A DNA stretch of 64,000 nucleotides, from assembly GCA_963788655.1 (NCBI GenBank), contig CAWBHS010000022.1:138463-202462 (forward strand). Direction: 5' to 3'. Within the stretch, counting starts at the first letter, position 1; each line of letters begins with the position of its first letter. The notes under the pieces were generated by a model. It saw only the letters and a program-made list of their open reading frames with translations. It ran no database searches and was not told the origin of the DNA. Shown piece by piece: positions 10,070 to 55,063 of this stretch. This stretch comes from an uncultured Verrucomicrobiae bacterium (GTDB lineage Bacteria; Verrucomicrobiota; Verrucomicrobiia; Limisphaerales; JAFGQR01). The position numbers and the translations under genes were made by a program.

Positions 10070-10133
10070 TGAGAGCGCCAAACGAGAATCCATTGTCTTT
10101 CCATTTTCCCGAGAACTCGTTAGCCTTGGTGCC

Positions 10134-25205: not shown

Positions 25206-25634
25206 ATGAAGAAAAGCAAATCAACTAAACCAGTTGGCCCAGCAACCAACCTTAAATCGAAGCCGGCGGTTTCAACCGCCCCGCAAAAAACAAAAACGAC
25301 GGCCGTCAAAGGGCCGGTAACTGCCGTTGCGGCCCAACCGCGGGCAACGACGACCGCCGCCAAGGCAATGACGCCGCCGGCGCGCACCCGGATCGAAGCG
25401 ATCATCGACGTGGGATTCGGCAACCATCTGCACATTCGCGGCCAAGGGCCGGGATTGAATTGGGATCAAGGAACCCCCATGCAATGTGTGGACGGCGTCA
25501 AATGGGTCTGGACCAGCCCCGGGGCCAACCAAGCCATCGCCTTCAAAGTGCTGCTCAACGATCAAGTTTGGGCCCATGGAGACAACGCCATGGCCTCGCC
25601 CGGCCAAACGTTGCAGATCACCCCGGTTTTCTAA
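25206..25634 (+). CDS. small protein: Lys/Thr/Ala-rich N-terminus plus CBM20-like domain
   Basis: DVGFGN.L.IRG.GPGLNW..G.PM....W.W......FK.LLND..W. Confidence 0.7.
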   Translation: MKKSKSTKPVGPATNLKSKPAVSTAPQKTKTTAVKGPVTAVAAQPRATTTAAKAMTPPARTRIEAIIDVGFGNHLHIRGQGPGLNWDQGTPMQCVDGVKWVWTSPGANQAIAFKVLLNDQVWAHGDNAMASPGQTLQITPVF

Positions 25635-26115
25635 TACCGGACCCGCCGCGTTCCGGCCGGCACGTGCCGAACTGTTACTCGGAAATTGTCGAATGCGTAC
25701 CGAAATTCCAGCCGCCACGGGTGGCTGGATGAGCGGGGCGTCCGACGGTTTCCGCGGCTTTCGGGGACGGGGTGCCCGCCTGGACGGGGCCGCGTTCGAA
25801 GGTCAACCACGCGAATCTGTCGCCGCCAAGTGGGCACGGCGATTGTGCCCTCAGTGGGCCGCCGGGCCGCGTTGATCGGTATTCTTCTGTAGAATTCAGT
25901 ATTCAGTTGCATAAGTCACGTGGGGACCGGGCGCTATTGCCGCGGAGGATTTACCCGTCTCGACGCATGCCCGCCCCGTGGACTGATCCCATTCCGGCAC
26001 CGAGAATGTTGGATTCCGGGCTGCGGCTCCGGTCCCCATTCGATACAGAAGAAAAACGGACGCACGATTACCGTAAACGTGCCGGATAACCCTTGGCCGT
26101 ATGTATGCATTGACT

Positions 26116-32700: not shown

Positions 32701-33409
32701 CCACACTGACACCGGTAACGAGCGGTTGGAGCACGGCCTGGTAAAAGCTGGTTGGCCCGGAAGCATCCAACTCCACGTAATTGGTGTTGTTCAATTGCAC
32801 GACGGGCACATCCATCCGCGCCCAATTCACCAGGTCCGTCGCCGTGTTGAGCACCACATCGGCAAACGAATCCGGCCAACTGAGTTCGAGTCGCCCTTCG
32901 GGCAGGGGACGGAGGCGTATCGCCGGCAACGCTTCCGTGCGAACAAACGTGAGTTGGTCAACCCAGGCCCGATCCAGGTTATGGCTTTGAGAAACATCCT
33001 TGGTATAGCGCCAACGTAGCAAATGCGTTCCGGCTGCGATGGAAAACGACTCCGGGGCCCAATCCATTTCTCCCGAAATTCGCGTCGCCAATTGGCCATC
33101 CAACCAAAACTCCAGAAAGTCAAACGTGGGCTCGGAAGACACTTTCCACCAAAAGCCCACCTCCCCCGGCCCGACCAGCGTGGTTTGAAGCCAGGATTCC
33201 TCGAGGTCACCAACAGCACCGCTCTCGGCGGCATCGCCGTCGAAATGGGTGACCAACGCCTGGCCGAACCAAAGATTACTCCCGCCCGTGGACCAATTCA
33301 GCGCCGGCGCATCGAGCGCGTCACCCAAACTCAGGGCCGCGGCTTGAGGGTTGAGGGCGAAGACGGTACATGACACTACCGCGCCGAATAACGATGCTAT
33401 TGATTTCAT
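29746..33409 (-). CDS. secreted multidomain M6-family metalloprotease, frameshift near 31915
   Basis: Signal peptide at 33409; HELGHNLGLGDLY (HExxHxxGxxD); CARDB-like domain; two ORFs join at PTAP/ENFNVIPAMG. Confidence 0.75.
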
Positions 33410-33554: not shown

Positions 33555-34416
33555 TCAGCCCGGAGGCTGTCCGAGCGTTTCGGCGGCAATCAGCTCCCAG
33601 TATGCCTGACGAAGCTTGTCCACCAACGGCGATTCGGCCAACGGCACGCCATCCAGACTTACCGCCGTCACCAGACCCAAGGTGCTTAAGGTCAGAAACA
33701 CTCCCATAGCCTTGGGCAAGGATGCGCGGTCAATGTTCGTTTCTTGAAAGGGCACTCCCGAGAGATCGGCAGAGCTCAATCACCGCCGCTCGCGTCACTC
33801 CTGCCAGCAATCCGGCGCCCAGCGGTGGCGTGCAAACCGTTTCCCCTTCCAGCCAAAACAAATTGCTGCTTGCCGCTTCGGTCACGGCACCGTCGGTGTT
33901 GAGCAGCAACGCTTCATCAGCGCCTTGGTCCTCGGCCTCCAGGCGCGCGAGGATTTGGGGCAGTTTGTTGGCGGACTTGACTCTGGCCATGGGATCGTTG
34001 ACCGGAACTCGAAGGGAGGACGTGATCAGCCGCCAACGGGGCGCTGGCGCAGGTCCTGCGGGGGGCGGTTCGTGCAAAGTCATCACCAGGGTCGGCGCGC
34101 TCGCTGACCGGGTCGAGTAACCTCGCGCGCCCACGCCACGAGACAATGTCAGACGCAAGACCGCCTCCGGCATCTGATTTCGCCGAATCAACTCGGCCGC
34201 GTAATGACCCAGCGCGGCGCGCGCGAACGGCATTTGCAGGCGCAACAATTCGGCTCCTTCGTGAAGACGATCAATGTGCTGGTCCCAACGAAACACCTTC
34301 CCTTGGCGGACCAACATCGTTTCGAACAGCCCATCGCCGTACAGAAAGCCTCGGTCCAAAACCGAAACCACCGCCCGGTCTTCCGGCACGAACTGGCCGT
34401 TGAGGAAAACAATCAT
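33555..34416 (-). CDS. pabC: aminotransferase class IV / aminodeoxychorismate lyase, frameshift near 33755
   Basis: DRGFLYGDGLFET, KSAN, E...SNLF, LAGVTR; coupled to pabB; C-terminus in ORF 33555-33779. Confidence 0.75.
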
Positions 34417-35936
34417 GGCTCCGTGGCGAGCCGATTGGCCCGCGTTAAACTGGCGCTGGGATTGATGCTCAGCCGGTGAATTGATTCCATGGCTGCCAGG
34501 AATCCTTGCGCTTTGGCCAACGTCTCCTCGTATTCGGCTTCGGGACTCGAATCAGCGACGATGCCGGCACCCACGTGGAAATGTGCCGTGTGATTCCGCC
34601 ACAACGCGGTGCGAATGATGATGCTCAATTGGCTCTCGCGATTGAATCCGAGGTAGCCGAGGCAGCCGGTGTAGGGCCCGCGGATGACCGGCTCCATTTC
34701 GTCAATGATCTCCATCGCGCGAATTTTCGGTGCGCCGGTAATGCTGCCGCCAGGAAAACCGGCGGCCAGCGCCTCGAGGTGCGTCAAACCCGACCGCAAC
34801 TGTCCGGTCACAGTGGATACCAAATGCTGCACGTGCGCGTATCGTTCCAGGCGGACCAACTCGGGGACGCGCACCGAGCCGTATTCGCAGACCTTGCCCA
34901 GATCGTTCCGGAGCAGGTCGGTGATCATCACCAGCTCGGCCATTTCCTTGGGGCTGGTTTGCAGTTCATAAGTCAACTGTGCGTCCCGATCCGGATCGGC
35001 CGAACGCGGGCGGGTGCCTTTGATGGGCCGCGTCTGTATGTGGGCACCGCTCATTTGAAGGAACAACTCCGGCGAAGAGGATGCCAATTCAAAATCTCCG
35101 CAGTTCAGGTAGGCGGCGAACGGTGCCGGCGAAACGTCACTCAAGCAACGAAACAAATCCCAACCGCTGCCGTGACAGGCGGTGGTCAACCGCTGGGCCA
35201 GGTTCACTTGGTAAATGTCCCCGGCCCGAATGTAACGTTGAGCCCGTTCCACCGCCGCGACAAATTGCTCGCGGCTGAAAGTGGAAGAACAGGCCAGTTG
35301 ATTTGGCCGGAACGCATCAGTTGCAAAGGGGAGCGCGCCCGCCTCGGGCGCCGTGGTTGGCGCCTCGCCAACCACCTTCGAGCACCCAAGTGGCTCACGA
35401 TTCAGTAATCGGTGTCTCCAAAACTCCAATTGCTCGCGCGTGCGCCGTTCGCTACGGGCCCCGTCCGGCTGCAATCCGGTGGACACGATCCAGCTCTTGC
35501 CAAGGGCGTGATCGAACACCACGAGGCTGTCATAGAATCCCAGATGACAATCAGGCGATTGCACGTCGTTGGCCGCGCCGCGGGGCAAACGAGGTTCGAG
35601 GAAACTTTTCAAATCGTAGCCCCAATATCCAAAGCACCCACCCAAGGGAAACGGCACATCGACTTCGTCCAGCAACTCAAAACGCCCCAGCAAGCCCTGC
35701 AGGATGGACCACGGATTGCCAAATTGAACGCTGCGTTCGCCTTCGAACGCCAACTCGCAACGCGCTCCAAAAGAGCGGAACATGAGCATCGGCCGCGCGA
35801 CGACGAACGAATAGCGACCCTGCCCGGCATCTAGCCGCCCACTGCGCAACAAAACGATGCCCGGCTCACCTTGGAGCCGTTCCACCAGACTTTCAGGCGA
35901 CAATGCACCCGACGCTTCCTGGATTATCGGCGGCAT
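34413..35936 (-). CDS. pabB: aminodeoxychorismate synthase component I
   Basis: GDIYQVNL, SSSPELFL, TRPIKGTRPR, MITDLLRNDLG, PGGSITGAPK. Confidence 0.9.
   Translation of the reverse strand: MPPIIQEASGALSPESLVERLQGEPGIVLLRSGRLDAGQGRYSFVVARPMLMFRSFGARCELAFEGERSVQFGNPWSILQGLLGRFELLDEVDVPFPLGGCFGYWGYDLKSFLEPRLPRGAANDVQSPDCHLGFYDSLVVFDHALGKSWIVSTGLQPDGARSERRTREQLEFWRHRLLNREPLGCSKVVGEAPTTAPEAGALPFATDAFRPNQLACSSTFSREQFVAAVERAQRYIRAGDIYQVNLAQRLTTACHGSGWDLFRCLSDVSPAPFAAYLNCGDFELASSSPELFLQMSGAHIQTRPIKGTRPRSADPDRDAQLTYELQTSPKEMAELVMITDLLRNDLGKVCEYGSVRVPELVRLERYAHVQHLVSTVTGQLRSGLTHLEALAAGFPGGSITGAPKIRAMEIIDEMEPVIRGPYTGCLGYLGFNRESQLSIIIRTALWRNHTAHFHVGAGIVADSSPEAEYEETLAKAQGFLAAMESIHRLSINPSASLTRANRLATEP
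35328..35406. repeat. family B repeat arm located inside pabB
   Basis: Reverse complement nearly identical to 56211-56267. Confidence 0.85.
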
Positions 35937-36747: not shown

Positions 36748-39382
36748 ATGGCTCGGAAGGACTCCGGAAACCGCGCTCATCCTCGTGGCATGAGCGATAT
36801 TATCGGCATCGTGCTGATCGCCCTGGCATTATTGCTTTTGGTGGCGCAACTGTCATTTGACCGTTACGACCTCGAAGCGAACCGTGTGCCGGTGAATCAG
36901 GCCGTGCACAATTGGATCGGCAGCGCCGGCGCGTTGGGCGCCAACCTGCTGTTCCAATTCTTTGGCGCCGCCGCATTTGTGCTGCCCTTGCTGCTGCTGC
37001 TGTTTGGCATCGGCTACCTGTTTGAATTCTTCGCCTACTTGAAACGCCGCTGGTTCTGGGCGGCGGTGTTGCTGTTCTGTTCCCTGGGATTCTTTGACCT
37101 GTATTCGCACTTGCTGGAAGGGTTGCGCTACAATTTGAACGCGCCCAGCGCCGGCGGTTACATCGGCAAGGCGATGAACGATTGGGTGTTTGGCCGATTT
37201 GGCAAGCCCGGCGCCACCATCATTTATGGCACGCTCTACTTGATCAGCGTCATTTACCTGACCAACTTCCACCTCGGCGACTGGCTTCGAAGTTTGTTCC
37301 ATCGGGAAACGAAACTGCCGGGCGAAGAACACTGGACGCCGGAGGAAAAAGTCCTTGCCCGCCGCGCCCGGGATTTGCAACGGAAGGCCTTGAAGTTGCA
37401 GGAAGAAATGGAGCGTTCAGGGTTGGGCGCGGATCTCCAACCCGTGCCGGTGCCCACCGTGCGCGATCTGAGCGTGCCCCAGCCGCGTTCCGATCGGAAA
37501 TCGCGCGCGAAAACTCCCGAACCTGATTCCGAAACAGACGGGGTTGAAGGGGAAATAATCCCCGCCGGCGAAGTCCGGGCCGCCTCGACCAAGGACATTC
37601 TGGGCGACCACGCAAAAACCAAACCGGACGCTCACGAAACCAGCCCGGAAACCGAGCCCGAGGCCGAGCCCGCCGCGGCCGAATCCAAACCCACGCCGGC
37701 GGTGCCGATCAAGATCACCGACCAATCGATGGGCCGGCGCAGGCCGAAGAAGCCCAAGCCGATCACCGTCGCCGCGCACGCCGATGATCGGCAACTACCA
37801 GTTGCCGCCGATGGATTTCTTTCAATACCCGGACCAGAACGTCAAACCGACCGAGTCCAAGGAGGAATTGATGGCCAACGCGCGGCTGATGCAGCAGACG
37901 CTGGCGCAGTTCGGCATCGAAGTTGCCCTGGGCGACATCACCAAAGGCCCGACGATCACCCGCTACGAATTGCATCCCGGCGCCGGGCGTGAAGCTGGAA
38001 AAGATCACCGCGCTGAGCAACAACATCGCCGCCGCGCTCAAGGCCGAGCGCATTCACATCCTCGCGCCGGTGCCCGGCAAGAGTTCGGTCGGCATCGAGG
38101 TGCCCAACGCCGTCAAGACCAAGGTCATCATGCGCGACCTGCTCGAGTCGGACGAATGGCGCAACACCAAGGCCCGCATTCCGCTGGCGCTGGGCAAGGA
38201 CGTCTACGGCCATCCGATCATCGCCGACCTCGCGGACATGCCGCACCTGCTGATTGCCGGCAGCACCGGCTCCGGCAAGTCGGTTTGCATCAATTCCATC
38301 ATCGCCTCGCTGCTCTACCGGTTCTCCGCCCGACCAACTCCGGTTCGTGATGATTGATCCGAAGGTCGTCGAGCTTGCAGCAATACAACCCCCTGCCGCA
38401 CCTGGTCGTGCCGGTCGTCACCGATCCCAAGAAAGTCATTCTCGCGCTGCGCTGGGTGGTGAACGAGATGGAGAAGCGCTACCAGATCTTCGCGCGAGTC
38501 GGCGTGCGCAACATCAAATCGTTCAACGACCGCCCGAAGAACAAACCCGCTGCCGCAGACCGGAACCGGAACTGCCGCTGACGCGCCAAGAAGGAAAAAG
38601 TGCGAACCCGGCGCCGAAGGCTTCGCGGTGGAAGTGGACGAGGAAATCGTCGTGCCGCGCGAGGAAGACATCGTCATTCCCGAGAAGCTCAGCTACATCG
38701 TGGTCATCATCGACGAGCTGGCCGACCTGATGCTCGTGGCGCCGGCGGACGTCGAAATGGCCATCGCGCGCATCACGCAGATGGCGCGCGCGGCCGGCAT
38801 CCATTGCATCGTCGCCACCCAGCGGCCGAGCGTGGACGTCATCACCGGCGTCATCAAGGCCAACATCCCGGCGCGCATCGCGTTCCAGGTGGCCGCCACG
38901 GTGGATTCGCGCACCATTCTCGATGCGATGGGCGCCGACAAACTGCTGGGCAAGGGCGACATGCTTTACCTGCCGCCGGGCTCGGCCAAGCTGATCCGCG
39001 CGCAGGGCGCGCTCGATCACCGACCAGGAAATCCAGAAGCATCGTGGACTTCATCGCCAAGCAGGGCAAGCCCAGCTACGAGATGGAAATCCACCAGCAA
39101 CTCTCCAAGCCGGCGCACGAGCTTCGAGAACGAGAGCGGCATCGACGAGGACGAGGACCTGATCCAGCAGTGCATCGAAGTCATTCGCAGCGAGCAAAAG
39201 GCCAGCGTCTCGCTGATGCAGCGCCGCTGCGCCTCGGCTACACCCGCGCCGCGCGCATCATGGATGAACTGGAGAACCGCGGCATTGTCGGCCCCAGCAA
39301 AGGCGCCGAGCCGCGCGACATCCTCATTGACCTCGACGGCACCGGCGCCGACGGCCTGCCTGCCAGCCAATCGCCGGCCTGA
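36748..39382 (+). pseudogene. ftsK: DNA translocase FtsK, many frameshifts in the 3' half (probably sequence errors)
   Basis: 4TM N-terminus; [43 protein letters not shown] and gamma domain spread over at least 7 ORF fragments. Confidence 0.9.
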
Positions 39383-39715
39383 CGAGGGCGCTATCCGGTT
39401 TTGGGTGCTCACAACTGGTACGGGCCGTGGGATCTCACACCGCTGCCGCCAAGATGGCCTTGACCGAGTGGAAGGAAAAGCACGCCCAAAACAGGAGAGA
39501 TATCGCATTCTTCCAATCTGCGAACCATTGGCCATGGATGGGCGATCTGAACAGGCGCGAGTATTGCAGCGAAGCTCAGGTGGAATTCTCATGGGTTGAC
39601 GCCGCGCTGCCATTTGACGTAATCTGTTGACGTGAATGGGATTACCGATGGAGTTTCAATGGTTCACTATACGAACCGATGGTTCGTTGAATAATTGTAG
39701 GCTCGGAGAGTACGC

Positions 39716-40030
39716 ATGCTCATAGTCTTCTCCATTACGGTCGTCGTTTTGCCCGCGCTCCTCACCGTTGCAGCGTGCGCATTCGCGGAGCGGCAGCATC
39801 GCAAAGCTGCTTGGTACGTGGCGTTATTCGCCTGCATTGTGACTGGCTTTATTGGCGCCATTTTGATTTTTCAGGGAGACGTATTTTATTTAGATTCTTG
39901 GCTGGACAACGGCAAAGGTTCGCCAGTTCGGAATTGCTTCTTGATAGGGAGTGGGGTCGGCTTGCTCCCTGGATTGTTCGTTGTCCGATTTTACCGTGAG
40001 AGATTCAAGGGCCATAAAAAACTTGCCTAA
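39716..40030 (+). CDS. hypothetical membrane protein (gene cassette 1)
   Basis: Three hydrophobic segments; stop codon lies in the R'' box GCCTAAC. Confidence 0.7.
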   Translation: MLIVFSITVVVLPALLTVAACAFAERQHRKAAWYVALFACIVTGFIGAILIFQGDVFYLDSWLDNGKGSPVRNCFLIGSGVGLLPGLFVVRFYRERFKGHKKLA

Positions 40031-40120
40031 CAAATCGAGTCACCGAATGACCGGCAAGCACGTCAGTTTTGAATTTGGAAGGCACCGGGATGCCGCTCAT
40101 CGGCGCTCTCCGCGTTAGCC
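40025..40120 (+). mobile_element. integron attC site 1
   Basis: GCCTAAC ... GTTAGCC; inner arms GAG(T)CACCG(A)ATGA / TCATCGGCGCTC with two unpaired bases. Confidence 0.8.
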
Positions 40121-40136
40121 TGCATCGCACACGCCT

Positions 40137-40481
40137 ATGAACAAGATTGCGCCCATACTCGGAGAATCGCTGGCGGCTACACTCGTCATCGTCCTTTGTC
40201 TCTCGCTTCCCTCTTTCTTGGGCTTGCCTTTGTGGTCGCTGCCCTTGTTCGGCGTTCCGGCGATGCTTTATTTGGACTGGCGGCTCGGAGAGCGCCACTG
40301 GGCGCGCTGGAAGATTGTGCGCTGGGTGGTGGGCATGAGTTTGATCATGTTCCTTTGGTCTCGGTTTTCGCCGACGGACTACGGCTGGTGGATTGTGCTG
40401 TTGCTGCTGATCATCTTCCCGCCGAGTTCATGGCTGTTTTGGCGGAAGACGAAGAGAGAGGATTCACACCATGCAGGCTAA
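40137..40481 (+). CDS. hypothetical membrane protein (gene cassette 2)
   Basis: About four TM segments; starts 16 nt after attC1; stop codon inside GGCTAAC. Confidence 0.7.
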   Translation: MNKIAPILGESLAATLVIVLCLSLPSFLGLPLWSLPLFGVPAMLYLDWRLGERHWARWKIVRWVVGMSLIMFLWSRFSPTDYGWWIVLLLLIIFPPSSWLFWRKTKREDSHHAG

Positions 40482-40598
40482 CGAAGAGCGCTGCAGCGAA
40501 CCGCCGCCCCGCTTTGCAGTCGGGCGGTTCGGATAATTTGTCATCGATTGTTGCAGCCGACCGGGCGTTTCCGGCGCCGGTCGCTGAGTTCGTTGGCC
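40476..40598 (+). mobile_element. integron attC site 2
   Basis: GGCTAAC ... GTTGGCC; arms CT(G)CAGCG(A)ACCG / CGGTCGCTGAG with two unpaired bases. Confidence 0.8.
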
Positions 40599-40674
40599 TG
40601 CTCCGGGCGGAACCCTGCTGTCCCTTCTCTTTTACGCATCTTGACCCCCAACCTGGAAGAAACAGGCTTTGTGC

Positions 40675-40881
40675 ATGAGACAAGTATTGATCCATGCGGG
40701 TGAAGACGGTTACTGGGTTGCCGAGTGTCCGAGCTTGCCGGGCTGCGTGTCCCAAGGGACCACCCGCGAAGAAGCAATCCGCAACATCAAAGAGGCCATC
40801 GAGGGGTATGTCCTGGTGCTCAAGGAGGATGGACCTCCAGTGCCTGAGGACAAACTGGATGCACTTTTTTTGGCGGTATGA
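40675..40881 (+). CDS. hicB: HicB family antitoxin (short form)
   Basis: EDGYWVAECPSLPGCVSQG.T.EEA..NIKEAI. Confidence 0.9.
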   Translation: MRQVLIHAGEDGYWVAECPSLPGCVSQGTTREEAIRNIKEAIEGYVLVLKEDGPPVPEDKLDALFLAV

Positions 40882-41100
40882 GCACGCTGCCGCGTGTTTC
40901 AGGGCAGCAGGTGGTCGCGGCGCTGCCGAGCATAAGGCTTCCGGGTTCGCCGCCAACATGGAAGCCACATCATCATGCGGCGGGATGATCCCTTCGCCCA
41001 GACAGTAGTGCCCGCGCACCGCGAACTGGATCGGGGAATGTTGAGAGCCATTCTCCGTCAGATCGAAATAAGTGTGGAAGAGTTTGTTCGCTTACTTTGA
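40878..41100 (+). CDS. hicA: HicA family toxin, frameshift near 40935
   Basis: MSTLPRVSGQQVVAAL, then after a shift GF...RQHGSHIIM...VVPAHRELDRGMLRAIL; ATGA overlap with hicB. Confidence 0.8.
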
Positions 41101-41177
41101 AATCTGGCCAACCAGGGCGATGGAACGTTGCGGCTTGTGGCTTTCACGAACTCAATCGCGGCAATTGCAGTGAAAAG

Positions 41178-41321
41178 GAGAGCACGCACACCCAGAGCGA
41201 TGATAATCCGAGACTGCGCCGGTTGGCCCGCGACTGGAGCGTCACGTAACAGCGAGTGAAACCAATGCTCGAAAACTTGTGGGCGAGGCGCCAACCGTAG
41301 CGCCTGAGGCGGGCGCGCTCC
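41178..41321. repeat. REPIN, family B (left arm degenerate)
   Basis: GCCGGTTGGCCC.CGACTG and GGCGAGGCGCCAACC...GGCGGGCGCGCTCC match 56120-56267. Confidence 0.7.
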
Positions 41322-41327
41322 GCAGGC

Positions 41328-42071
41328 TTAGTCCGACGGACCGGCATATCTTTGGCGCGCGGCTTCGAGGGACTGCGGGGTGCCGATGTCCAGAATCGTC
41401 CCCTGGATTCGATGGGCATAGACCGGCTCCCGCTGAAACAGCCATTCGATGAAATGGCCGGGCGCCTCCGCGGAACCGCCCTGGGCCAGGTACTCGGATA
41501 CGCGCGGCAATGTGCGTTGGGGAAACAGGTAAATCGGCGGCACGGCCAATTGGGTTTTTGGCTCACGCGGCTTCTCAGCGAATTCCAAGACGCGGTTGCG
41601 CTCGTCCAGCACGACCACTCCCGTGCGCCGAAGCCGTTCCGTGTCCGAGACAACGTGGACACACAGATGGCTGGTGGGGCAGGCACGAAAAGCGGAGGCC
41701 AATTCCATCAGCGGAAACTCGAGGATATTGTCCGCGGCCGTGACCAACAAATCGTCGTCAATCCTCGCCTGTCGCACGGCAAATTGTAGATCGCCGATGG
41801 CGCCGAGCCGGTCCTCGTTGCTGGTGGTGCCGTCATCGATGAGCGTGATTTTCCGGGTGCCAACCCACCGCCGCCGCCAAGCTTCAAAGTGCGGCAAGAA
41901 CCGGTGGTTGGTGATAAGAAAGACGTGATCGAGGGCGGGGATCGTTTCCAGTTGGCCCATCAAATGATCCAGGATGGTTTGTCCGCCCGCCTCGAGCAAC
42001 GGCTTGGGAAAGTCCTTCGTCAACGGGTATAGCCTCGTCGCATAACCGGCTGCGAGAATAAGCGCTTTCAT
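41328..42071 (-). CDS. sugar-phosphate nucleotidyltransferase
   Basis: MKALILAAGYATRLYPLT...PKPLL, DIGT; ATGA overlap with the kinase stop. Confidence 0.92.
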   Translation of the reverse strand: MKALILAAGYATRLYPLTKDFPKPLLEAGGQTILDHLMGQLETIPALDHVFLITNHRFLPHFEAWRRRWVGTRKITLIDDGTTSNEDRLGAIGDLQFAVRQARIDDDLLVTAADNILEFPLMELASAFRACPTSHLCVHVVSDTERLRRTGVVVLDERNRVLEFAEKPREPKTQLAVPPIYLFPQRTLPRVSEYLAQGGSAEAPGHFIEWLFQREPVYAHRIQGTILDIGTPQSLEAARQRYAGPSD

Positions 42072-43447
42072 AAGCGTCGCGCTCCATCCGCCGATTGGCA
42101 CAGAAGAAAGCGGGCCCGCGCCGCGAGCTGGGGCTGGCGCCGGGCGTAGGCCGCTTGCAGTTCCGGCAGCGCGTGTCGGGCGGCGTCCGGTTCGGCCAAG
42201 GCCACGCAACACCCCCGAAAACCGGCCCCGCTAAATCGCGCACCGTAAATGCCCGGCGTATGGACCAGTAAGTTGTAAAGATCGAGCAAGGGCTGACTGC
42301 CACATTCGTAATTGTCGATCGAACTCTGCCCCGACTCGGTCATCAACTTTCCAAACCGGATCCAATCGCCCCCGCGCCAGGCGTCAATCCCGTCGTGAAC
42401 ACGCTGCATTTCCGTGAAGAAATGTTGGGCGCGCCGGGCCGGGGCGCCGCTCAGGCGTGAACGGTGCGCGGCGTATTCCTCAGGCCGCACGTTGCCCAGA
42501 TAAGCGGATTCATCGGTGCGCCCGACGGCGTCGAGCAGAATCCGGGCAGCCGCAGCACATTCGGCAACGCGCTGGTTGTAGTCGGTGGCAATGACGGCCT
42601 GGGTCAATCCGGAAACCGCCAGCAAAATAGTAAACGGCGGCGCCTGGCCTTTCTCAATCCAACGGATGCCACGGTTGTCGCGCGACGCGAGGTCATCAGT
42701 TTCATTCGTTGGCGCCTCTGAACGTGTTTTGAACGTCTGTAAACCGGTAGCCACCGACGTAAGGAGGTGGATCTGTTGGTCGCTTGGCGTTGGCGAATTC
42801 GCCTCCTCATGTTGGCGGTTACCCTTTTGAAACGCGCTCTCAGCGAATGCGTGGCAATTGATCACTGTGAGTTGGTCGTGTCTGGACAGCAGGATGGCGG
42901 ATTGATCCAGGATACCGTTCTTCAGACCGAGATACTCGTTTTCGACGGCTTGGTCCAAAACGATGTTATGCGCCGCGGACACTTCAAGCTGATTGAGATC
43001 TTCCAGCGCCAGCAGGTACGCCACGCCAACGCTTGCCGAAGAACTTAGCCCAACCTCGGGCAATCCACCGCTGGTGACACCGACCATGCCCTGCCTCAGT
43101 CGATTCCCGCGGCTCAGTACCTTGATCGCACCGCGCGCATAATCTCCCCAATCGCCGAGCGGAGCGGTGGGGACGTGCGCGAGGGGAATGGTGATTTCGT
43201 TGGAATACGCCAGGCTGCTCAGTCGCACTTCGTCGGAACCGGACGGGGCGTAAGCGAGATATGTCCCTCGATCGATGGCCATCGCGGTGACGGTTCCCAA
43301 TTGATGATCGATGTGCGCACCCAACGGGCAAATCCGATACGGCGACCAGACCACCCGAACCAGTGCCGGCGCGATGCCGTATCGGTCGTGCATCGCCTGG
43401 CGAAGCTGGCTCAAAGTGTCCGGTTGATCCATCGCGCTGTCTCTCAT
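42068..43447 (-). CDS. GHMP sugar kinase, galacturonokinase-like
   Basis: SPYRICPLGAHIDHQ, GLSSSA, GL.NGILDQ, NYECG, GARFSGAGFRGC. Confidence 0.85.
   Translation of the reverse strand: MRDSAMDQPDTLSQLRQAMHDRYGIAPALVRVVWSPYRICPLGAHIDHQLGTVTAMAIDRGTYLAYAPSGSDEVRLSSLAYSNEITIPLAHVPTAPLGDWGDYARGAIKVLSRGNRLRQGMVGVTSGGLPEVGLSSSASVGVAYLLALEDLNQLEVSAAHNIVLDQAVENEYLGLKNGILDQSAILLSRHDQLTVINCHAFAESAFQKGNRQHEEANSPTPSDQQIHLLTSVATGLQTFKTRSEAPTNETDDLASRDNRGIRWIEKGQAPPFTILLAVSGLTQAVIATDYNQRVAECAAAARILLDAVGRTDESAYLGNVRPEEYAAHRSRLSGAPARRAQHFFTEMQRVHDGIDAWRGGDWIRFGKLMTESGQSSIDNYECGSQPLLDLYNLLVHTPGIYGARFSGAGFRGCCVALAEPDAARHALPELQAAYARRQPQLAARARFLLCQSADGARRL
42747..42822. repeat. REPIN, family E, inside the kinase gene
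   Basis: GTAGCCACCGACGTAAGGAGGTG and inverted arm CGCCTCCTCATGTTGGCGGTTAC. Confidence 0.7.
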
Positions 43448-44382
43448 TTCCGCCGCCGCATGTCCACGTAAACCGCGCCCAGGATCACGCCGCCCTTGAC
43501 GATGTATTGCAGCGAATAATGGACGCCGGCCTGGTTTAAACCCTTGTCCAGAATGCCAATGATGATGGCCCCCAGCAACGTGCCGTAAATCGTGCCGCGC
43601 CCGCCGGTGAAACTGGTGCCGCCCACCACCGCCGCGGCAATGGCGTGCAATTCGAACATCACTCCGGAGGCCGGCTCAGCGGAATACAACTGCGAGGCGT
43701 TGATCATGCCGGCCACGCCGGTCAGCAGCGAGCAAATCACATAGACCAGGATTTCAATGCGGGCGACGGGAATGCCCGTGAATCGCGCGGCTTCGCGGTT
43801 GCCGCCGATGGCATACAGGTGTTGCCCGAACCGCGTCCGGTGCAGGAGCACAGCCGTCAAGGCAAACAGGCCAAGCATCACCACCACCGGCACGGGTATC
43901 ACTCCGAATAACCGGCCATTGCCCAATGCCAGGAACACCGCCTGGCTATCGGGAATGTGCATGGGCCGGCCCTCGTTGTACCGCAACGCGGCCCCGCGCG
44001 CGATCAGCATGGTGGCCAGCGTGATGATGAAGGGTGGCATGGGGGTCCTCGCGGCGCACACGCCGTTCATCAACCCCAGCAATGCGGCCACTGCCAATCC
44101 CGCCGGCACGGCCAGCCACAGGCCGAGCCCCGTGAGACCGGTCGTCAGGAAATAGACAGTTGACGTGCCCACCAACGCCAGCAATGCCCCCACCGATAAG
44201 TCAATTCCCCCGCTCAGAATCACCAACGTCATGCCGTACGCCAGGATGGCGTTGATCGAGATTTGTTGGGCCAGGTCCAGCAAATTGATGGGATGCAGGA
44301 AATTGGGCACCCACAGCCGGAACAGTCCCAGCAGTACCGCCACTGCAATCAGCAGCGGCAACATTCGTTTATACGTTCTCAT
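43444..44382 (-). CDS. monosaccharide ABC transporter permease (RbsC-like)
   Basis: GGIDLSVG, PPFIITL, GGN.EAA...GI, IAAAVVGGTSF.GG.G. Confidence 0.95.
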   Translation of the reverse strand: MRTYKRMLPLLIAVAVLLGLFRLWVPNFLHPINLLDLAQQISINAILAYGMTLVILSGGIDLSVGALLALVGTSTVYFLTTGLTGLGLWLAVPAGLAVAALLGLMNGVCAARTPMPPFIITLATMLIARGAALRYNEGRPMHIPDSQAVFLALGNGRLFGVIPVPVVVMLGLFALTAVLLHRTRFGQHLYAIGGNREAARFTGIPVARIEILVYVICSLLTGVAGMINASQLYSAEPASGVMFELHAIAAAVVGGTSFTGGRGTIYGTLLGAIIIGILDKGLNQAGVHYSLQYIVKGGVILGAVYVDMRRRK

Positions 44383-45903
44383 CCAGGGATGCTCCGGTCA
44401 GTTGTTCCATGACGCGTTCGGGCGTGTACTCAGTCGCCTTGCCCAGCTTGAGGATTCGGCCTTCCCGATAAACGGCGATCCGATGTGACAAGTTCAGGAC
44501 TTCGTTCAAATCCGAAGAAATCAGAATTACCGCGATCCCCGACGCCACCAGTTTGGCGATGAAGGAAAAGATTTCTTCCCGCGCGCCAACATCGACGCCG
44601 CGCGTGGGTTCATCGAGAATCAGCACACGTGGCGGATGTTCCATCCAACGGCCGACCAAAACTTTTTGCTGGTTGCCGCCCGAGAGGCTGTCCACCGGTT
44701 GCTCGGGATCGGCCAACCGAATGGCAAAATTCCGCACCGCCCGGTCCACGATGGCGGCGCGTCTTTTGTGATTCGGCGTGCCAGCCGGCGATCCAGTCCC
44801 GCACCCAGGGCAAAGCGATGTTAAAGGCCACCGACTGGCAGACGACCAGGCCCTGCAGTTTTCGGTCCTCCGGGATCAAGACGATGCCGGCCTGCAACGC
44901 CTCCGCCGGCGAGGCAATCTTGACGGCCTTGTCCTGATCGCAGGATTTCGCCGCTCTCCAAGCGGTCGATGCCGAAAATGGCCCGGGCCAATTCGCTGCG
45001 TCCGGACCCGACCAAGCCGGCAAAGCCAAGAATTTCCCCGGCGCGCAATTGGAAACTGACGTTGCGCACTTTTGCATTGGTCAGGTTCTTCACCTCCAGA
45101 ACGATGTCTCCCGAAGCCCCGGCGGGGCGATGGAAATGGTCGGCGATTTCGCGTCCCACCATCCAGCGTACGAGCTCCTGTTGGTGCAATTGGCTGGTCG
45201 GTTGGGTGCCGATGGATTCCCCATCCCGCAATACCGTGATGCGGTTAGCCAGGCGGATGATTTCTTCGAGGCGGTGCGAGATGTAAATGATGCCCACGCC
45301 CTGTTCTCGCAACCGTGAAAGCGTGGCGAACAGGATTTCGGTCTCCGTCTCGGACAGCGAGGACGTGGGTTCGTCCAGCACGAGAATGCGCGCCTGGCAG
45401 GACAATGCCCGAGCAATTTCGACCAGTTGCTGGTGAGCCACGCTCAGGGTGGAGACGTCGGCCCGCACATCGCGGATTTCGGTCAGGCCGAGCCGATTGA
45501 CCAGTTGGCCGGCCTCCGCAAATATTTGACGCCGATCCAGAAACCCAAAGCGTCCCGGTTCGCGACCCAGATAAATGTTTTCCGCCACGGAGAGATTCGG
45601 GGCCAGGGACAATTCCTGGTGAATGATGCGGATGCCGTAGCGGTCCGCATCGCCGACGCCGTAAATGGACGCCGGTTGGCCATTGATAACGATCGCACCT
45701 GCGTCGGGCCGATGAATGCCGCCGAGCACTTTGATGAGGGTGGACTTGCCGGCGCCGTTCTCACCGAGCAATGCGTGGATTTCCCCAGCCTGCAACTCGA
45801 AGTCCACGCCCTTCAGAGCCTGCACACCGCCGAAGTATTTTTTGACGCCCCGCAAGCGGAGCAGAGTGTCGGGTGCCGTTCGAGTGCAGTCGAATTGGGG
45901 CAT
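44369..45903 (-). CDS. monosaccharide ABC transporter ATP-binding protein (RbsA-like), frameshifts near 44940 and 44770; start uncertain, frame open up to 46815
   Basis: GENGAGKST, LDEPT, PEDRK, LSGGNQQK, DEPTRGVDVGA across three ORF fragments. Confidence 0.88.
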
Positions 45904-45968
45904 GCTGATTGGTGGTCTAGGATTGGCCATCAGCAATCGTGCTCCCGGCAGCAAATGGAGCACTGGAA

Positions 45969-46453
45969 CGTGCTGCCGGCATCCTGCCGGCAGAGCGAAC
46001 GGAGCAAGCCAAGGCGAAGGGTATTGTTTGAGTTCGAGCGCACCTTTCGTGATCCGTTTCTGCCGGCGGGACGCCGGCAGCACGTTGCTCCAGCGTGCTG
46101 CCGGCATCTTGCCGGCAGGTCGGACGGCGCCAGCCCAATCGAAGGGTATTGTTTGGTTCGAGCGCACCCTTCGTGATCGTTTCTGCCGGCGGGACGCCGG
46201 CAGCACGTTGCTCCAGCGTGCTGCCGGCATCTTGCCGGCAGGTCGGACGGAGCCAGCCCAATTGAAGGGTATTGTTTGGTTCGAGCGCACCCTTCGTGAT
46301 CGTTTCTGCCGGCGAGACGCCAGCAGCACGTTGCTCCAGCGTGCTGCCGGCATCTTGCCGGCAGAGCGAACGGCGCCAGCCCAATCGAAGGGTATTGTTT
46401 GGTTCGAGCGCACCCTTCGTGATTGTTTCTGCCGGCGGGACGCCCGCAGCACG
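45969..46453. repeat. tandem array of four ~123-bp REPIN units (family G)
   Basis: Units start at 45969, 46094, 46217 and 46340; each CGTGCTGCCGGCATCYTGCCGGCAG ... CTGCCGGCGRGACGCCRGCAGCACG with near-identical interiors. Confidence 0.95.
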
Positions 46454-46577
46454 TCGCCCCAGCGAATGGAGCAAACCATATCCAAAGTTAATACTCGGTC
46501 GTTCGCATACACCGACTCGGTCCCTGCCAAGTTCCGTAAAGTATTACCGTGCGCAACGCACTGCAGGTCGTCGATCC

Positions 46578-46728
46578 TCGCGAAGCGTTTGGAGTGCGTG
46601 GAGCTTGCTCCCGCTTTTGGTTTGGTACGACAAAACAACTTGCTGCCGTGCCGCGCGAGAAAAACTCGACCCTTGCGGTTTCGTTCGAAAGCGCCGGCAA
46701 GCCGGGCGCACTCCAAACGCTGGCGCGA
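46578..46728. repeat. REPIN, family F (GCGTTTGGAGTGCG)
   Basis: Inverted arms 46578-46617 and 46688-46728; related copy at 59143-59294. Confidence 0.85.
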
Positions 46729-46811
46729 CTTAGCTTCCGCGGTTGCAATATCGGCGCCAGCCACGTGTCGGAATGTAACAAACCAACTTCTGCCCGTTTT
46801 CCCATCGCAGC

Positions 46812-47762
46812 TCATTGCTTGAGGAATTCGTCGGCATTCGTTGCAGTGATCAGTTTGACGGGCACCTTGACGTTTTTGGGAATCGTTTTGCCGGCCAGGT
46901 GCCCATAAAATTTCTCGGCGGCGATGCGCCCAATTTCCTTCGGGAATTGGGCCGAGGTCGAATACAGCTTGCCGGCCTTGATGGCCGCGATGCCTTCCTG
47001 CGAACCATCGACCGTCACCACGGTAACGTCCTTCAGCTTGCCCGCCGATTCCAAGGCGGAGATGGCTCCCAATGCACTGGGATCGTTGATCGGAAACACG
47101 GCATCAAGGTCGGGAAACCGGCCCAACAAATCCCGCATGACCGGCCGCGCGCCTTCAGTGGTGCCTTTGCCTTCCTGGATGTCCTGGATCTTGAGTCCGG
47201 GATGCTTGGCAGCTTCCTCCTTGAATCCGGCGACGCGGTCAATGCATGCTTTGTTCACGGACAAGTGCAGGATCACCACTTTGGCGTTCGGCTTGACGGT
47301 GGCCAGCGCCCGCGCGGCTAATCGACCCGCCTCGAGATTGTCGGAAGCCACCTGGCACAGCACGAGATCTTCCTCCTTAACTGGCGCGTCCACAATGATG
47401 CACGGTACGTGCTGGTTCTTCGCCTGGAGCAACGTGCCTTTAATGCCTTCCCAGTTCACCGGGTTGATAAACACGGCGGCGGCGCCTTGCATGATCACGT
47501 CGGAAATGTCGTTCTTCTGTTTGAGACTGTTGAATTGCGCATCGAGGGTGACCAACCGATCACCGTGGGCCTCGACCACTTCCTTGAGCCCCTGGTTCAA
47601 GTCGATGAAGAACGGATTATTCATCGTCTGGTATGACACCGCCAGGAGACGACTTTGGGTTTTCGTGTCGCTGGAAGCGGCAGAATTGGTTTCCGTTTTG
47701 CCGCAACCGAAAGCAAGAGCCAGCAGACCCATGGCGGCGAAGTTTAGAATGTTGTGCTTCAT
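46812..47762 (-). CDS. sugar ABC transporter substrate-binding lipoprotein (RbsB-like)
   Basis: Lipobox LAFG-C, NNPFF, SDN..AG, ND..ALGA, VDG. Confidence 0.93.
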   Translation of the reverse strand: MKHNILNFAAMGLLALAFGCGKTETNSAASSDTKTQSRLLAVSYQTMNNPFFIDLNQGLKEVVEAHGDRLVTLDAQFNSLKQKNDISDVIMQGAAAVFINPVNWEGIKGTLLQAKNQHVPCIIVDAPVKEEDLVLCQVASDNLEAGRLAARALATVKPNAKVVILHLSVNKACIDRVAGFKEEAAKHPGLKIQDIQEGKGTTEGARPVMRDLLGRFPDLDAVFPINDPSALGAISALESAGKLKDVTVVTVDGSQEGIAAIKAGKLYSTSAQFPKEIGRIAAEKFYGHLAGKTIPKNVKVPVKLITATNADEFLKQ

Positions 47763-54411: not shown

Positions 54412-54648
54412 ATGACCGTGTTGACCGCCCATTTCGACGGAAAGGCAATCATCCCGGATGAACCGGTGGAGTTGCCGGTGAATTGTGCCTTGAAGGTGCA
54501 AGTTGAGCCGCTGCGGGAAACGGTGCCTACCGCCACCCATTTGCATCGCTTGGTTCAGATAGCCAAAAAGTATCCGGTAACCGGCGGTCCAGCGGATGGC
54601 GCGGCACAGCACGATCACTACCTCTACGGCCTGCCCAAGAAACCATGA
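54412..54648 (+). CDS. putative antitoxin (DUF104/AF2212-like)
   Basis: AHFDGK.I.P.EPVELP and P.D.A.QHDHYLYG; directly upstream of a PIN gene. Confidence 0.75.
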   Translation: MTVLTAHFDGKAIIPDEPVELPVNCALKVQVEPLRETVPTATHLHRLVQIAKKYPVTGGPADGAAQHDHYLYGLPKKP

Positions 54649-54652
54649 CCTC

Positions 54653-55063
54653 ATGATCTTCTTGGACACCGGCTACTTCATCGCGCTTTTTACCACCGAT
54701 GACAATCTTCACGACCGAGCGGTTGCTTGGTCGATGCAGATCAACGAGCCATCACTCGCCACCGAATACGTCCTCTGGGAATGCGTGAATACTTTCTCCA
54801 AACCGAAGGATCGTCCGTCGGCTCACGCGCTGATCGACCATGTGGAATCTGATCCATCGTGTGAGTTGATCCACGCCTCTCCTGAACTGTTTACTGTCGG
54901 CGTTGGACTTCACCGTAATCGTCCGGATAAGGAGTGGTCCCTGACCGATTGCATCTCATTCCACCTGATGCATGAACGTGGCTTGACTCGTGCCCTGGCT
55001 TACGACGCCCATTTCGAACAGGCTGGATTTCAAGCGCTACTTCGCCAAGATCCAGTGGCATAG
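54653..55063 (+). CDS. vapC: VapC/PIN domain toxin
   Basis: IFLDTGYFIAL, E, WSLTDCISF, D.HFEQAGF. Confidence 0.9.
   Translation: MIFLDTGYFIALFTTDDNLHDRAVAWSMQINEPSLATEYVLWECVNTFSKPKDRPSAHALIDHVESDPSCELIHASPELFTVGVGLHRNRPDKEWSLTDCISFHLMHERGLTRALAYDAHFEQAGFQALLRQDPVA

Follow-up and report, generated by a model that had tools for sequence, protein, structure and literature searches.

We found that the interval between ftsK and a nucleotidyltransferase gene in the DNA analyzed here (a stretch of 64,000 nt, which we call the window) is probably an integron-derived mini-array without a nearby integrase. It would be either a small CALIN (an integrase-less cassette array) or a single-attC SALIN, possibly decayed, and in any case an ordinary member of a well-known kind of element. 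About 1.5 kb separates ftsK from the convergent nucleotidyltransferase gene, and this space holds small genes arranged like integron gene cassettes, co-oriented with ftsK and packed tightly among box motifs. The features are these:

36748..39382, + strand: ftsK, the upstream flank, with Pfam FtsK_4TM, FtsK_alpha, FtsK_SpoIIIE and FtsK_gamma on separate ORFs
39427..39630, + strand: ORF0, 67 aa, a doubtful gene without a Pfam family, in a low-GC stretch between ftsK and ORF1
39697..39702, + strand: left boundary of candidate cassette 1, GTAGGC, one base short of GTTAGGC (the complement of GCCTAAC at 40025)
39716..40030, + strand: ORF1, 104 aa, gene of candidate cassette 1, with three hydrophobic segments and its stop codon inside the R'' box
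40025..40120, - strand (the bottom, folding strand): attC1, a canonical attC of 96 nt, with R'' GCCTAAC and R' GTTAGCC
40137..40481, + strand: ORF2, 114 aa, gene of candidate cassette 2, with 2-3 hydrophobic segments and its stop codon inside GGCTAAC
40476..40598, - strand: site 2, 123 nt, at the place expected for attC2 but non-canonical, GGCTAAC to GTTGGCC
40675..40881, + strand: hicB antitoxin, 68 aa, Pfam HicB_lk_antitox (PF15919), E 1.1e-9
40878..41100, + strand: hicA toxin, Pfam HicA_toxin (PF07927), positions 12-58 of 58, E 1.7e-14, in the downstream frame
41106..41228, - strand: site 3, 123 nt, a box pair only, GGCCAAC to GTTGGCC
41328..42212, - strand: nucleotidyltransferase gene, the convergent downstream flank, Pfam NTP_transferase, E 3.4e-26

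As assembled, the ftsK reading frame shifts five times or more, which makes assembly indels likely; a tblastn search with E. coli FtsK as the query gave HSPs in frames 2, 3, 1, 2, 3 and 2 across 37802-39292. Because the assembly has many indels, the T missing at 39697 is ambiguous, and an assembly indel and a real deletion cannot be told apart there. GC content falls to 0.50 over 39450-40050, compared with 0.60-0.67 in the flanks. We found no sigma-70-like promoter in 39200-41500. Rfam at gathering thresholds returned 0 matches and no attC family over the whole window, and there were only three chance-level matches in 39300-41500. ORF1, ORF2 and the whole 1.9-kb region had no match among 72,556 plasmid records. 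Upstream of cassette 1 there is no canonical attC, and an attC-like fold is absent throughout 39383-39720. We also considered ORF0 as a fourth cassette and rejected it, given that absence and its protein matches, of which a search of 1.84 billion representatives yielded only two, both weak (E 3e-6 and 3e-5) and to repeats inside longer proteins without a family.

The box consensus of attC sites is RYYYAAC / GTTRRRY. A strict RYYYAAC...GTTRRRY scan misses all three sites, as each set of boxes deviates from it at one position. We dropped this consensus as a filter because real attC sites deviate likewise; the GTTAGCC of attC1, for example, departs from GTTRRRY at one position, yet serves as R' box in the arr-2 attC. 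For a candidate attC we looked for inverse R'' (nnnnAAC) and R' (GTTnnnn) boxes that were 50-150 nt apart and largely complementary. As the basis of our covariance model we used 12 class 1 attC sites from plasmid records. Refining the model brought no gain, with realignment to model R1 simply repeating the MAFFT register, and R1 was used alone. RNAalifold gave no consensus structure, and a first hand-written geometry scan was dropped after recovering 7 of the 14 known sites. The positive controls were all class 1 integrons of Proteobacteria, used here for a Verrucomicrobia-like locus.

Of the three sites, only attC1 holds up as an attC. Its boxes, 96 nt apart, are 6/7 complementary. Searching both strands with filters off, we found that attC1 was the best match in the window to the class-1-derived covariance model (15.3 bits, E 0.075) and in the expected orientation. 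The alignment is local and extends no more than two bases to each side of the boxes, and the same model gave a false match of 17.6 bits inside the intI1 match of control record L025. Probable attC sites that had been left out of the model scored about the same as attC1 (dfrA14 with 16.5 bits and L029:4770-4830 with 15.4 bits). The 18 nt adjacent to R'', on which the preliminary description did not draw, scored 4.9 bits on the matrix of known sites (p 0.004), and the known sites themselves ranged over 2.8-20.5. Arm complementarity anchored at the R box had a p of 0.017, and the inner score of the R'-side arm was -4.6 bits (p 0.21).

Folding the bottom strand of attC1 gave the canonical form. 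In the minimum free energy structure the R box is paired and is followed by a 4x4 spacer. The R'' arm then carries two single extrahelical bases, A and T, with a spacing of 6 bp; they follow arm positions 15 and 21. We wrote a strict geometry rule after attC1 and the controls had been seen, and under this rule attC1 was the sole pass among 1797 candidate box pairs in the window. Among the known sites, 5 of 14 pass the strict rule and 13 of 14 a relaxed one; of 3000 shuffles, 0, 1 and 0 pass (0/3000 for attC1). In 202,887 bp of control DNA the strict rule passed 5 of 4632 pairs, all at attC positions in cassette arrays. Four of these are annotated attC sites, and the fifth (L029:4770-4829) was taken as attC from its place in the array. 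With attC1 passing the tests of sequence, fold geometry and specificity, an integron origin of the ORF1 cassette is supported.

A reader might still suspect that nothing here is related to integrons, and that the DNA downstream of ftsK is a small variable island, made up of orphan genes for membrane proteins and a mobile hicBA module, with a coincidental resemblance to attC. The covariance-model match has an E no better than 0.075 and depends on the boxes, and the whole-site matrix score of attC1 (20.6 bits, which we kept solely for comparison with known sites) is reached in 24% of Markov-shuffled windows. Such a reader could add that an integrase is absent from the window and that a second confirmed attC is absent as well. 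The flanks gave no comparative DNA to consult: a scan of genome contigs with the nucleotidyltransferase as the query found 19 loci, and the best of them, from the closest relative in the genome collection (a Verrucomicrobiia MAG), was 58% identical and had no adjoining ftsK. We nevertheless consider coincidence highly improbable. It would have to account for a geometry that appeared in none of the attC1 shuffles and in no other candidate of the window, for a rule that in 203 kb of control DNA matches cassette-array positions only, and for an inner-arm matrix score that is independent of the boxes. It would also have to account for in-box stop codons and a 12-bp boundary complement, which we describe now.

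Integron crossover takes place between G and TT, so that the R' box preceding a cassette complements the cassette's own R'' box. In the control cassettes this held at 7/7 positions in 8 of 8 cases. The preliminary description had reported self-complementary cassette ends, and every motif that it listed is present at its coordinates. In the window, the match is 7/7 for cassette 2 (GTTAGCC at 40114 with GGCTAAC at 40476) and for cassette 3 (GTTGGCC at 40592 with GGCCAAC at 41106), and a degenerate 6/7 with a one-base gap for cassette 1 (GTAGGC at 39697 with GCCTAAC at 40025). It had also placed the gene stop codons within the R'' boxes, and this was confirmed for ORF1 (TAA at 40028-40030, in GCCTAAC) and ORF2 (TAA at 40479-40481, in GGCTAAC). 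ORF1 starts 13 nt past the left boundary and ORF2 starts 16 nt past the R' box of attC1. For cassette 2, a further 5/5 outer bases are complementary, which has a random frequency of 0.002 and was seen likewise in one control cassette, aac(6')-Ib4. Together these make a perfect 12-bp complement across the ends of ORF2 (GTTAGCCTGCAT / ATGCAGGCTAAC). We infer that two consecutive in-box stop codons together with this complement are unexpected by chance, with a rough estimate of <1e-4 when allowing for about 50 gene junctions. The 7/7 and 5/5 boundary complementarity makes an integron origin of ORF2 likely.

The ends of ORF2 can also be written as a 21-nt inverted repeat, which we considered as a sign of a transposon-like element and rejected. 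The inner 9 nt match at 6/9, which is near chance, ORF2 is not a transposase, and the left arm of the repeat belongs to the attC1 hairpin.

There is a narrower reading in which only ORF1 and attC1 derive from an integron, as a single isolated cassette (SALIN) that an integrase placed into a secondary site of the genome downstream of ftsK, with ORF2 and hicBA being resident or separately acquired and their flanking 7-mers being chance. We think that this is possible but rather unlikely. It has the attraction that attC1 alone passes the attC tests, and that a box pair by itself is at chance level: of the 2138 nnnnAAC boxes in the window, 288 are matched 45-150 nt away by a GTTnnnn box with complementarity of at least 6/7. 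Two of the 7-mers in question are common on the + strand of the window, with 21 copies of GGCCAAC and 18 of GTTGGCC. In 21,105 genomes Loot et al. count 3400 SALINs and 2961 CALINs, and their experiments show insertion of cassettes at non-att sites (bioRxiv 10.1101/2022.09.11.507474). Single sites are also unreported by IntegronFinder 2 under its default (10.1101/2022.02.28.482270). What speaks against this reading is the junction between attC1 and ORF2, where the TTAGCC after the crossover G of attC1 and the next 5 nt perfectly complement the end of ORF2, including its stop codon, over 12 bp. A SALIN requires this to be a chance match between 7-mers that are rare on the + strand (GGCTAAC with 2 copies and GTTAGCC with 3; GCCTAAC also has 2), in addition to the infrequent 5/5 match of the outer bases. 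Both GGCTAAC and GTTAGCC are box variants of real attC sites (dfrA22 and arr-2).

The other two sites behaved differently from attC1 and have nothing in common with attC sites except R-box-like 7-mers. A second GTTGGCC at 41222, which the preliminary description had overlooked, closes a third box pair with the GGCCAAC that lies 5 nt past the hicA stop. Neither site 2 nor site 3 had a covariance-model match at E<=10, even in a 2.2-kb search. Their position-weight-matrix totals were -7.2 bits and -13.5 bits, compared with 19.8-55 for left-out known sites, and their inner-arm matrix scores were those of background. For arm complementarity the p was 0.25 for site 2 and 0.09 for site 3, and 12 of 14 known sites had p<0.06. 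Site 2 forms a three-way junction that contains two internal hairpins, and the fold of site 3 is branched too. A relaxed fold test, in which the canonical structure may lie up to 2 kcal/mol above the constrained optimum, is passed by 13 of 14 known sites and 10 of the 1797 window pairs but by neither site 2 nor site 3. We searched the intergenic regions of both sites for alternative AAC/GTT pairs and found none that was better. Between their boxes the three sites do not resemble one another in sequence, which is uninformative either way given how heterogeneous attC sites are in mobile-type arrays.

The claim of two complete attC-like sites was therefore not established, as it holds for site 1 only and site 2 fails the model, matrix, arm and fold tests. 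The related claim of two unpaired bases in the arms is right for site 1, where an A and a T bulge out singly from the R'' arm, and wrong for site 2 with its three-way junction. Sites 2 and 3 look degenerate or non-canonical, with a presumed loss of activity.

These failures weigh on the trans-serviced option of the preliminary description, taken here as a fully functional CALIN of three cassettes in which all three sites would be active but divergent attC, serviced by an integrase elsewhere in the genome. Neither site 2 nor site 3 passes any of the tests by model, matrix, arm or geometry, the 64 kb have no intI, and hicA is frame-shifted as assembled. We consider a fully working array to be quite unlikely, although there is something to be said for it. 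The boundary rule is followed by cassettes 2 and 3 and, with its gap, by cassette 1; sites 2 and 3 are equal in length; and site 2 beats shuffles in folding (z -2.2 for the bottom strand and -3.2 for the top, compared with -0.6 for site 3). Weak fold z-scores are also found in 4 of 14 known attC sites, and the controls are all proteobacterial. Toxin-antitoxin cassettes are known integron cargo, which we also counted in its favor.

A further idea is that sites 2 and 3 are not decayed at all, and belong to a non-canonical attC class of PVC (Planctomycetes-Verrucomicrobia-Chlamydiae) integrons. Such sites would be exactly 123 nt long, with R boxes that match perfectly over 7 bp and follow the crossover rule, and with a branched three-way junction body instead of a single hairpin with extrahelical bases. 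We regard this as a very doubtful proposal. If it were true, current attC models would largely overlook cassette arrays in these phyla.

We searched for an integron integrase over all 64 kb, which is 39.7 kb upstream and 22.8 kb downstream of the array, and found none. This bears out the preliminary observation that the window has no intI. There was no match to PF00589 among 50 ORFs covering the window. The best tblastn match with IntI1 had an E of 0.088 and lies 14 kb away, and we rejected the idea of an intI pseudogene at 25624-25800 since the translation is Arg-rich and has no Pfam match.

The cargo was said to include two unknown membrane proteins, and this description fits, as ORF1 and ORF2 have hydrophobic segments and no family assignment. 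For ORF1 we found 5 homologues at 67-87% identity besides its own record, but no Pfam family above the cut-off and no Atlas family. For ORF2 there were 9 homologues at 55-89% identity, all of them metagenomic, and again no Pfam or Atlas family. Atlas look-alikes that fell below the threshold were left unused (YijD/DUF1422 at 0.87 for ORF2 and unnamed clusters at 0.90 for ORF1). Complete homologues end in A, S or G in 5 of 5 cases for ORF1 and in 7 of 8 for ORF2, which fits a conserved NNC-TAA-C end, although this is weak evidence because the homologous proteins are related to each other.

Both genes of the reported hicBA pair were found by Pfam, with the qualification that the frame of hicA shifts once between 40926 and 40935, perhaps through misassembly, as the condition of ftsK suggests. 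The start of hicA overlaps the stop of hicB. There are 6962 relatives of hicB at E<=1e-10, and the best 119 of them (its own record aside) are 48-97% identical, all but one at 78% or more, with several named Verrucomicrobia HicB. The one ORF1 homologue that is borne on a genome lies on a contig of 122,644 nt, and none of the 120 HicB relatives listed is on a contig of that size, which hints that ORF1 and hicBA are not always linked. The hicBA pair may be the third cassette. That the cargo includes defence or stress genes is speculation, and nothing supports its being a defence system.

Returning to the integron-derived mini-array, we propose the following history. Cassette 1 would consist of ORF1 followed by the canonical attC1, and cassette 2 would carry ORF2, with ends that appear to bear the signature of integron crossover. 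An integrase encoded elsewhere, or in a past host, would have inserted circular cassettes one after another, in an order that is our reconstruction. In each insertion the folded bottom strand of the attC would have recombined at the G|TT of the target site. The incoming cassette would then contribute the six bases that follow the G of the R' box ahead of it, so that these complement its own R'' box. Because there is no intI and no Pc promoter nearby, expression would come only by read-through from ftsK or from signals of the genes' own; for hicBA, signals of its own are probable because of its 76 nt of leader. Renewed movement of cassettes would need an integrase supplied in trans. Only attC1 looks competent for recombination, and the array is probably largely fixed because sites 2 and 3 look degenerate or non-canonical.

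If we are right, this is one more small integrase-less cassette cluster among the thousands already catalogued (the CALINs and SALINs of Loot et al. counted above). Its value is modest, as an example from a poorly sampled phylum, and it opens no long-standing question. It would label two small and almost exclusively metagenomic membrane-protein families as cassette cargo, and it would show that boundary complementarity can flag cassettes whose attC is unrecognisable.

We compared the locus with known systems, beginning with the cargo. The hicBA pair resembles HicAB type II toxin-antitoxin systems in its HicB_lk_antitox and HicA_toxin domains, in having the antitoxin gene first, in the overlap of stop and start, and in having very close relatives widespread in Verrucomicrobia. 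It differs in the frame change of hicA as assembled and in being a candidate cassette.

For attC1 the comparison was with class 1 attC sites from plasmid records (aadA1, dfrA14, catB2 and others). It differs from them in its R'-side arm, which has no sequence likeness to the controls, in its extrahelical bases (A and T, against G and T in aadA1), and in its unconstrained fold z-score of only -1.15, compared with a control median near -4.7. The likenesses are its R'' box followed by AAATCG, as in the blaVIM-1 attC, the GC before the GTT of R', the R stem of 7-8 bp with an unpaired spacer, and the extrahelical positions, which are those of the dfrA14 attC and run parallel to positions 16 and 22 in aadA1.

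As a SALIN, the locus has one convincing attC right after one small ORF, in a chromosomal intergenic place with no upstream att partner, no integrase, and a left junction that is not attC. The difference is ORF2, whose ends form a 12-bp complement in which the R' box of attC1 takes part, and this points to at least one more cassette. A CALIN is defined by Cury et al. 2016 by at least two attC sites within 4 kb, with 4 kb used for clustering and 10 kb searched for integrase pseudogenes; the same authors give fewer than six attC sites for 83% of CALINs and already know integrons in Verrucomicrobia (PMC4889954). That definition wants at least two covariance-model attC, whereas here a single canonical attC is accompanied by two box pairs that lack an attC hairpin and did not pass the attC tests. 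In other respects the locus is much like a CALIN: it has promoterless genes running one way, each followed by an AAC...GTT box pair, with no nearby integrase, a small size, cargo of unknown function, and boundary complementarity as in real arrays.

Between ftsK and a convergent NTP_transferase gene there are three AAC...GTT box pairs (sites 1 to 3; R'' is the AAC box and R' the GTT box) and three putative cassettes, namely ORF1, ORF2 and hicBA (cassettes 1 to 3).

36748-39382, + strand: ftsK, left neighbour of the putative cassettes
39716-40030: ORF1, 104 aa, TAA stop within GCCTAAC (40025)
40025-40120: site 1, box pair, 96 nt
40137-40481: ORF2, 114 aa, TAA stop within GGCTAAC (40476)
40476-40598: site 2, box pair, 123 nt
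40675-40881: hicB, Pfam HicB_lk_antitox
40878-41100: hicA, Pfam HicA_toxin, one frame change between 40926 and 40935
41106-41228: site 3, box pair, 123 nt
41328-42212, - strand: NTP_transferase gene, right neighbour, convergent

The window has a GC of 59.7%, its genes carry the Planctomycete/Verrucomicrobia-type domains PSD and PSCyt (Pfam), and the nearest relatives of hicB and of the neighbouring nucleotidyltransferase carry Verrucomicrobia or Verrucomicrobiia names. GC is ~0.50 across 39450-40050, compared with 0.60-0.67 in the flanks. The preliminary description had proposed a cluster of attC sites without an integrase (CALIN) 3' of ftsK. We found all of its motifs in place, with the stops of ORF1 and ORF2 inside R'' boxes as it had said, and its hicBA cargo agrees with Pfam. 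The GTT boxes lie at 40114, 40592 and 41222, the last of which it had not listed, and GGCCAAC (41106) is 5 nt 3' of the hicA stop. ORF1 and ORF2 start 13 nt and 16 nt past the boxes and there is no promoter-like site in 39200-41500, which fits with cassettes.

Just 3' of site 3 is a GC-rich 35-nt element (41287-41321, a single copy at up to 3 mismatches) that may be a REP-like repeat; a related inverted copy at ~35328-35361 is translated in frame (GEAPTTAPEAGALP) inside a pabB-like ORF (34413-35936). A 319-aa ORF with an IS200-like Y1_Tnp domain (63021-63980, E 1.8e-13) may be a REP-associated tyrosine transposase, which could relate to these short repeats. At 45969-46464, upstream of and read into an ABC ATPase ORF (44821-46815), a 123-nt unit occurs in 4.0 tandem copies with 93% identity, each with an inverted CGTGCTGCCGGC...GCCGGCAGCACG motif. 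Sites 2 and 3 are as long as one such unit, probably by coincidence.

Because an Rfam scan found nothing at the locus or window level, we assembled our own positive controls from class 1 integrons in plasmid records. Twelve attC sites were delimited 3' of annotated cassette genes and two more came from a model search (L026:5520-5613 and the dfrA14 site in L030), and these 14 sites calibrate every attC test, with the limitation that all come from Proteobacterial mobile integrons. The covariance model R1 was built from the twelve sites with a 15-pair R/L structure; refinement was unsuccessful. On the plasmid loci R1 recovered its training sites and gave two probable attC sites outside training 16.5 and 15.4 bits, with a false match of 17.6 bits within the intI1 region of L025. 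On both strands of the window with filters off, site 1 was the top of 8 matches at E<=10 (15.3 bits, E 0.075, runner-up 11.3 bits), in the expected orientation, in a local alignment covering only the boxes and two bases each side. Sites 2 and 3 had no match at E<=10, even with a search space of 2.2 kb.

A box pair by itself is not meaningful. In the window, 288 of 2138 nnnnAAC boxes have a GTTnnnn box with at least 6/7 complementarity 45-150 nt downstream. Matrices of the arm sequences gave left-out known sites 19.8-55 bits, site 1 20.6, site 2 -7.2 and site 3 -13.5. The site 1 total ranks first of 127,912 positions and is not significant window-wide, since 24% of Markov-shuffled windows attain it. 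Outside the boxes, at positions that the original observation had not used, the 18 nt on the R'' side of site 1 scored 4.9 bits (p 0.004; known sites 2.8-20.5) and the R' side -4.6 (p 0.21), with sites 2 and 3 at background level.

Unconstrained bottom-strand DNA folding gave z of -1.15, -2.2 and -0.6 for sites 1, 2 and 3. This is not decisive because 4 of the 14 known sites (range -7.7 to +0.09) also lie above -2.3. Arm complementarity anchored at the R box, which reached p<0.06 in 12/14 known sites, was z 2.45 (p 0.017) for site 1, with p 0.25 for site 2 and 0.09 for site 3. In the minimum free energy structure of site 1, the paired R box leads into a 4x4 unpaired spacer and then into stems of 3, 6 and 3 bp, separated by single bulged bases, first an A and then a T. 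Both bulges belong to the R''-L'' arm and follow its positions 15 and 21; the dfrA14 attC has them at 15 and 21 too, and aadA1 at 16 and 22.

We then required that the R box be paired, that the 3' arm carry two single bulges, one after position 14-17 and the other 5-7 bp beyond it, and that the fold have neither a 5'-arm bulge nor a branch. In plain minimum-energy folds 5/14 known sites pass this strict rule, as do 0, 1 and 0 of 3000 inner-sequence shuffles of sites 1, 2 and 3; the resulting p-values are somewhat optimistic because the rule was written after the data were seen. Of the 1797 candidate pairs that the window offers, site 1 alone passes. The control DNA (202,887 bp) has 4632 pairs, 5 of which pass; each of them occupies an attC position of a cassette array, four being annotated and the fifth taken for an attC because of where it lies in its array. 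With the R box forced and suboptimal structures within 2 kcal/mol allowed, 13/14 known sites and site 1 pass, as do 10 of the 1797 window pairs; sites 2 and 3 do not, nor does any other AAC/GTT pair within 39383-39720, 40440-40700 or 41080-41335. We conclude that site 1 makes a convincing attC and that neither site 2 nor site 3 is a canonical one. Of the two complete attC-like sites described earlier, the first holds on arms and geometry, but site 2 fails on R1, matrix, arms and geometry; likewise, the two unpaired arm bases are real in site 1 (the bulged A and T), while site 2 has no canonical fold within 2 kcal/mol. The rival reading originally proposed is a divergent CALIN that is fully active. 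Given how sites 2 and 3 scored, we judge it quite unlikely.

In integrons the crossover splits the G of R' from its TT, so the R' box before a cassette is predicted to be complementary to that cassette's own R'' box. This held at 7/7 in 8/8 control cassettes. Their next five outer bases matched at 5, 3, 1, 4, 3, 1, 2 and 1 positions (mean 2.5/5, compared with ~1.3 at random), so that in real class 1 cassettes the complementarity of cassette start and ORF end can exceed the 7-bp boxes, as in aac(6')-Ib4 (5/5) and aac(6')-IIa (4/5) (L028:4306-4382 and 4940-5025; L021:4351-4415 and 4974-5105). The self-complementary cassette ends noted earlier were confirmed at 7/7 for cassettes 2 and 3, with cassette 1 degenerate (GT-AGGC against GCCTAAC, short by one base). 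Cassette 2 adds 5/5 outer bases (GTTAGCCTGCAT / ATGCAGGCTAAC), which has a random frequency of 0.002, and cassette 3 adds 2/5. A chance origin of the ORF2 match is very unlikely because its boxes are rare in the window (GGCTAAC 2 copies, GTTAGCC 3; GCCTAAC also has 2), and the hicBA match is weaker because it is made of common 7-mers (+ strand, GGCCAAC 21, GTTGGCC 18). Chance resemblance for the whole locus could draw on the R1 E-value and on the shuffled windows; set against site 1 and the ORF2 boundary, we regard it as very improbable.

Sequence errors may have touched the locus. With E. coli FtsK, tblastn runs through frames 2, 3, 1, 2, 3, 2 between 37802 and 39292, with 34-55% residue conservation across the changes. 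An essential gene that is well conserved apart from this, yet shifts frame at least five times, points to assembly indels, and the breaks look like assembly error rather than a pseudogene. The same cause may lie behind the frame change in hicA and the T missing at 39697, which would then be artefacts. There may be an indel within sites 2 and 3 as well; a single indel would not erase arm complementarity. Elsewhere, a sugar-transport operon has an ABC ATPase gene with two domains (44369-46815) that appears split, likely by a frame error: 44369-44749 holds an ABC_tran C-terminal piece and 44821-46815 the remainder. Long same-strand ORF pairs overlapping by 50-200 nt (8965-11336, 13086-17593, 29746-33409) may be single genes split in the same way.

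ORF1 has three hydrophobic segments and ORF2 two or three. We found 5 homologues of ORF1 (67-87% identity, one on a 122,644-nt genome contig) and 9 of ORF2 (55-89%, all metagenomic), and conservation over the full length of both families shows that these are real genes. Neither has a Pfam family above cut-off, a usable Atlas family or a plasmid match, and nothing indicates a defence role for either. The last residue is A, S or G in 5/5 complete homologues of ORF1 and 7/8 of ORF2, which would fit a conserved NNC-TAA-C end, although this is weak evidence as the proteins are related to each other. Among the best 120 of 6962 hicB relatives (E<=1e-10), none is on a contig of 122,644 nt, the length of the one bearing an ORF1 homologue, a hint that hicBA does not always accompany ORF1.

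Upstream, ORF0 (39427-39630, 67 aa) has two weak matches only among 1.84 billion representatives. Over residues 31-63 it matches a unit of which two proteins without a Pfam family (312 and 552 aa) contain 3-6 copies, and it may be a gene fragment. At 54596-55063 a PIN-domain protein (E 1.9e-9) is encoded opposite an overlapping 90-aa ORF, and this may be a second toxin-antitoxin locus in the window.

The window lacks intI, as had been reported. Over its extent of 39.7 kb upstream of the array and 22.8 kb beyond it, none of 50 ORFs matched PF00589 and the best IntI1 tblastn match had E 0.088 (25624-25800). We rejected that segment as an intI remnant; its translation is Arg-rich and has no Pfam match.

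We believe that the locus is probably a mini-array that derives from an integron and comprises two or three cassettes; one attC would be intact, and the sites following ORF2 and hicBA non-canonical or degenerate. A single isolated cassette would suit the one convincing site, and the boundary match of cassette 2 lies beyond it; we find that reading doubtful, though not implausible. Sites 1, 2 and 3 share no inner similarity, which is also the case for sites in mobile-type arrays. Cury et al. reserve the term CALIN for two or more attC sites that lack an integrase, drop single sites as possible false positives, and mention integrons in Verrucomicrobia (Cury et al. 2016, PMC4889954). IntegronFinder 2 likewise counts CALIN from two sites up and states that single sites can be real (10.1101/2022.02.28.482270), and Loot et al. 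name these SALIN and demonstrate cassette insertion at non-att genomic sites (10.1101/2022.09.11.507474). Given these definitions and the Verrucomicrobia integrons already reported, the locus falls within known categories.
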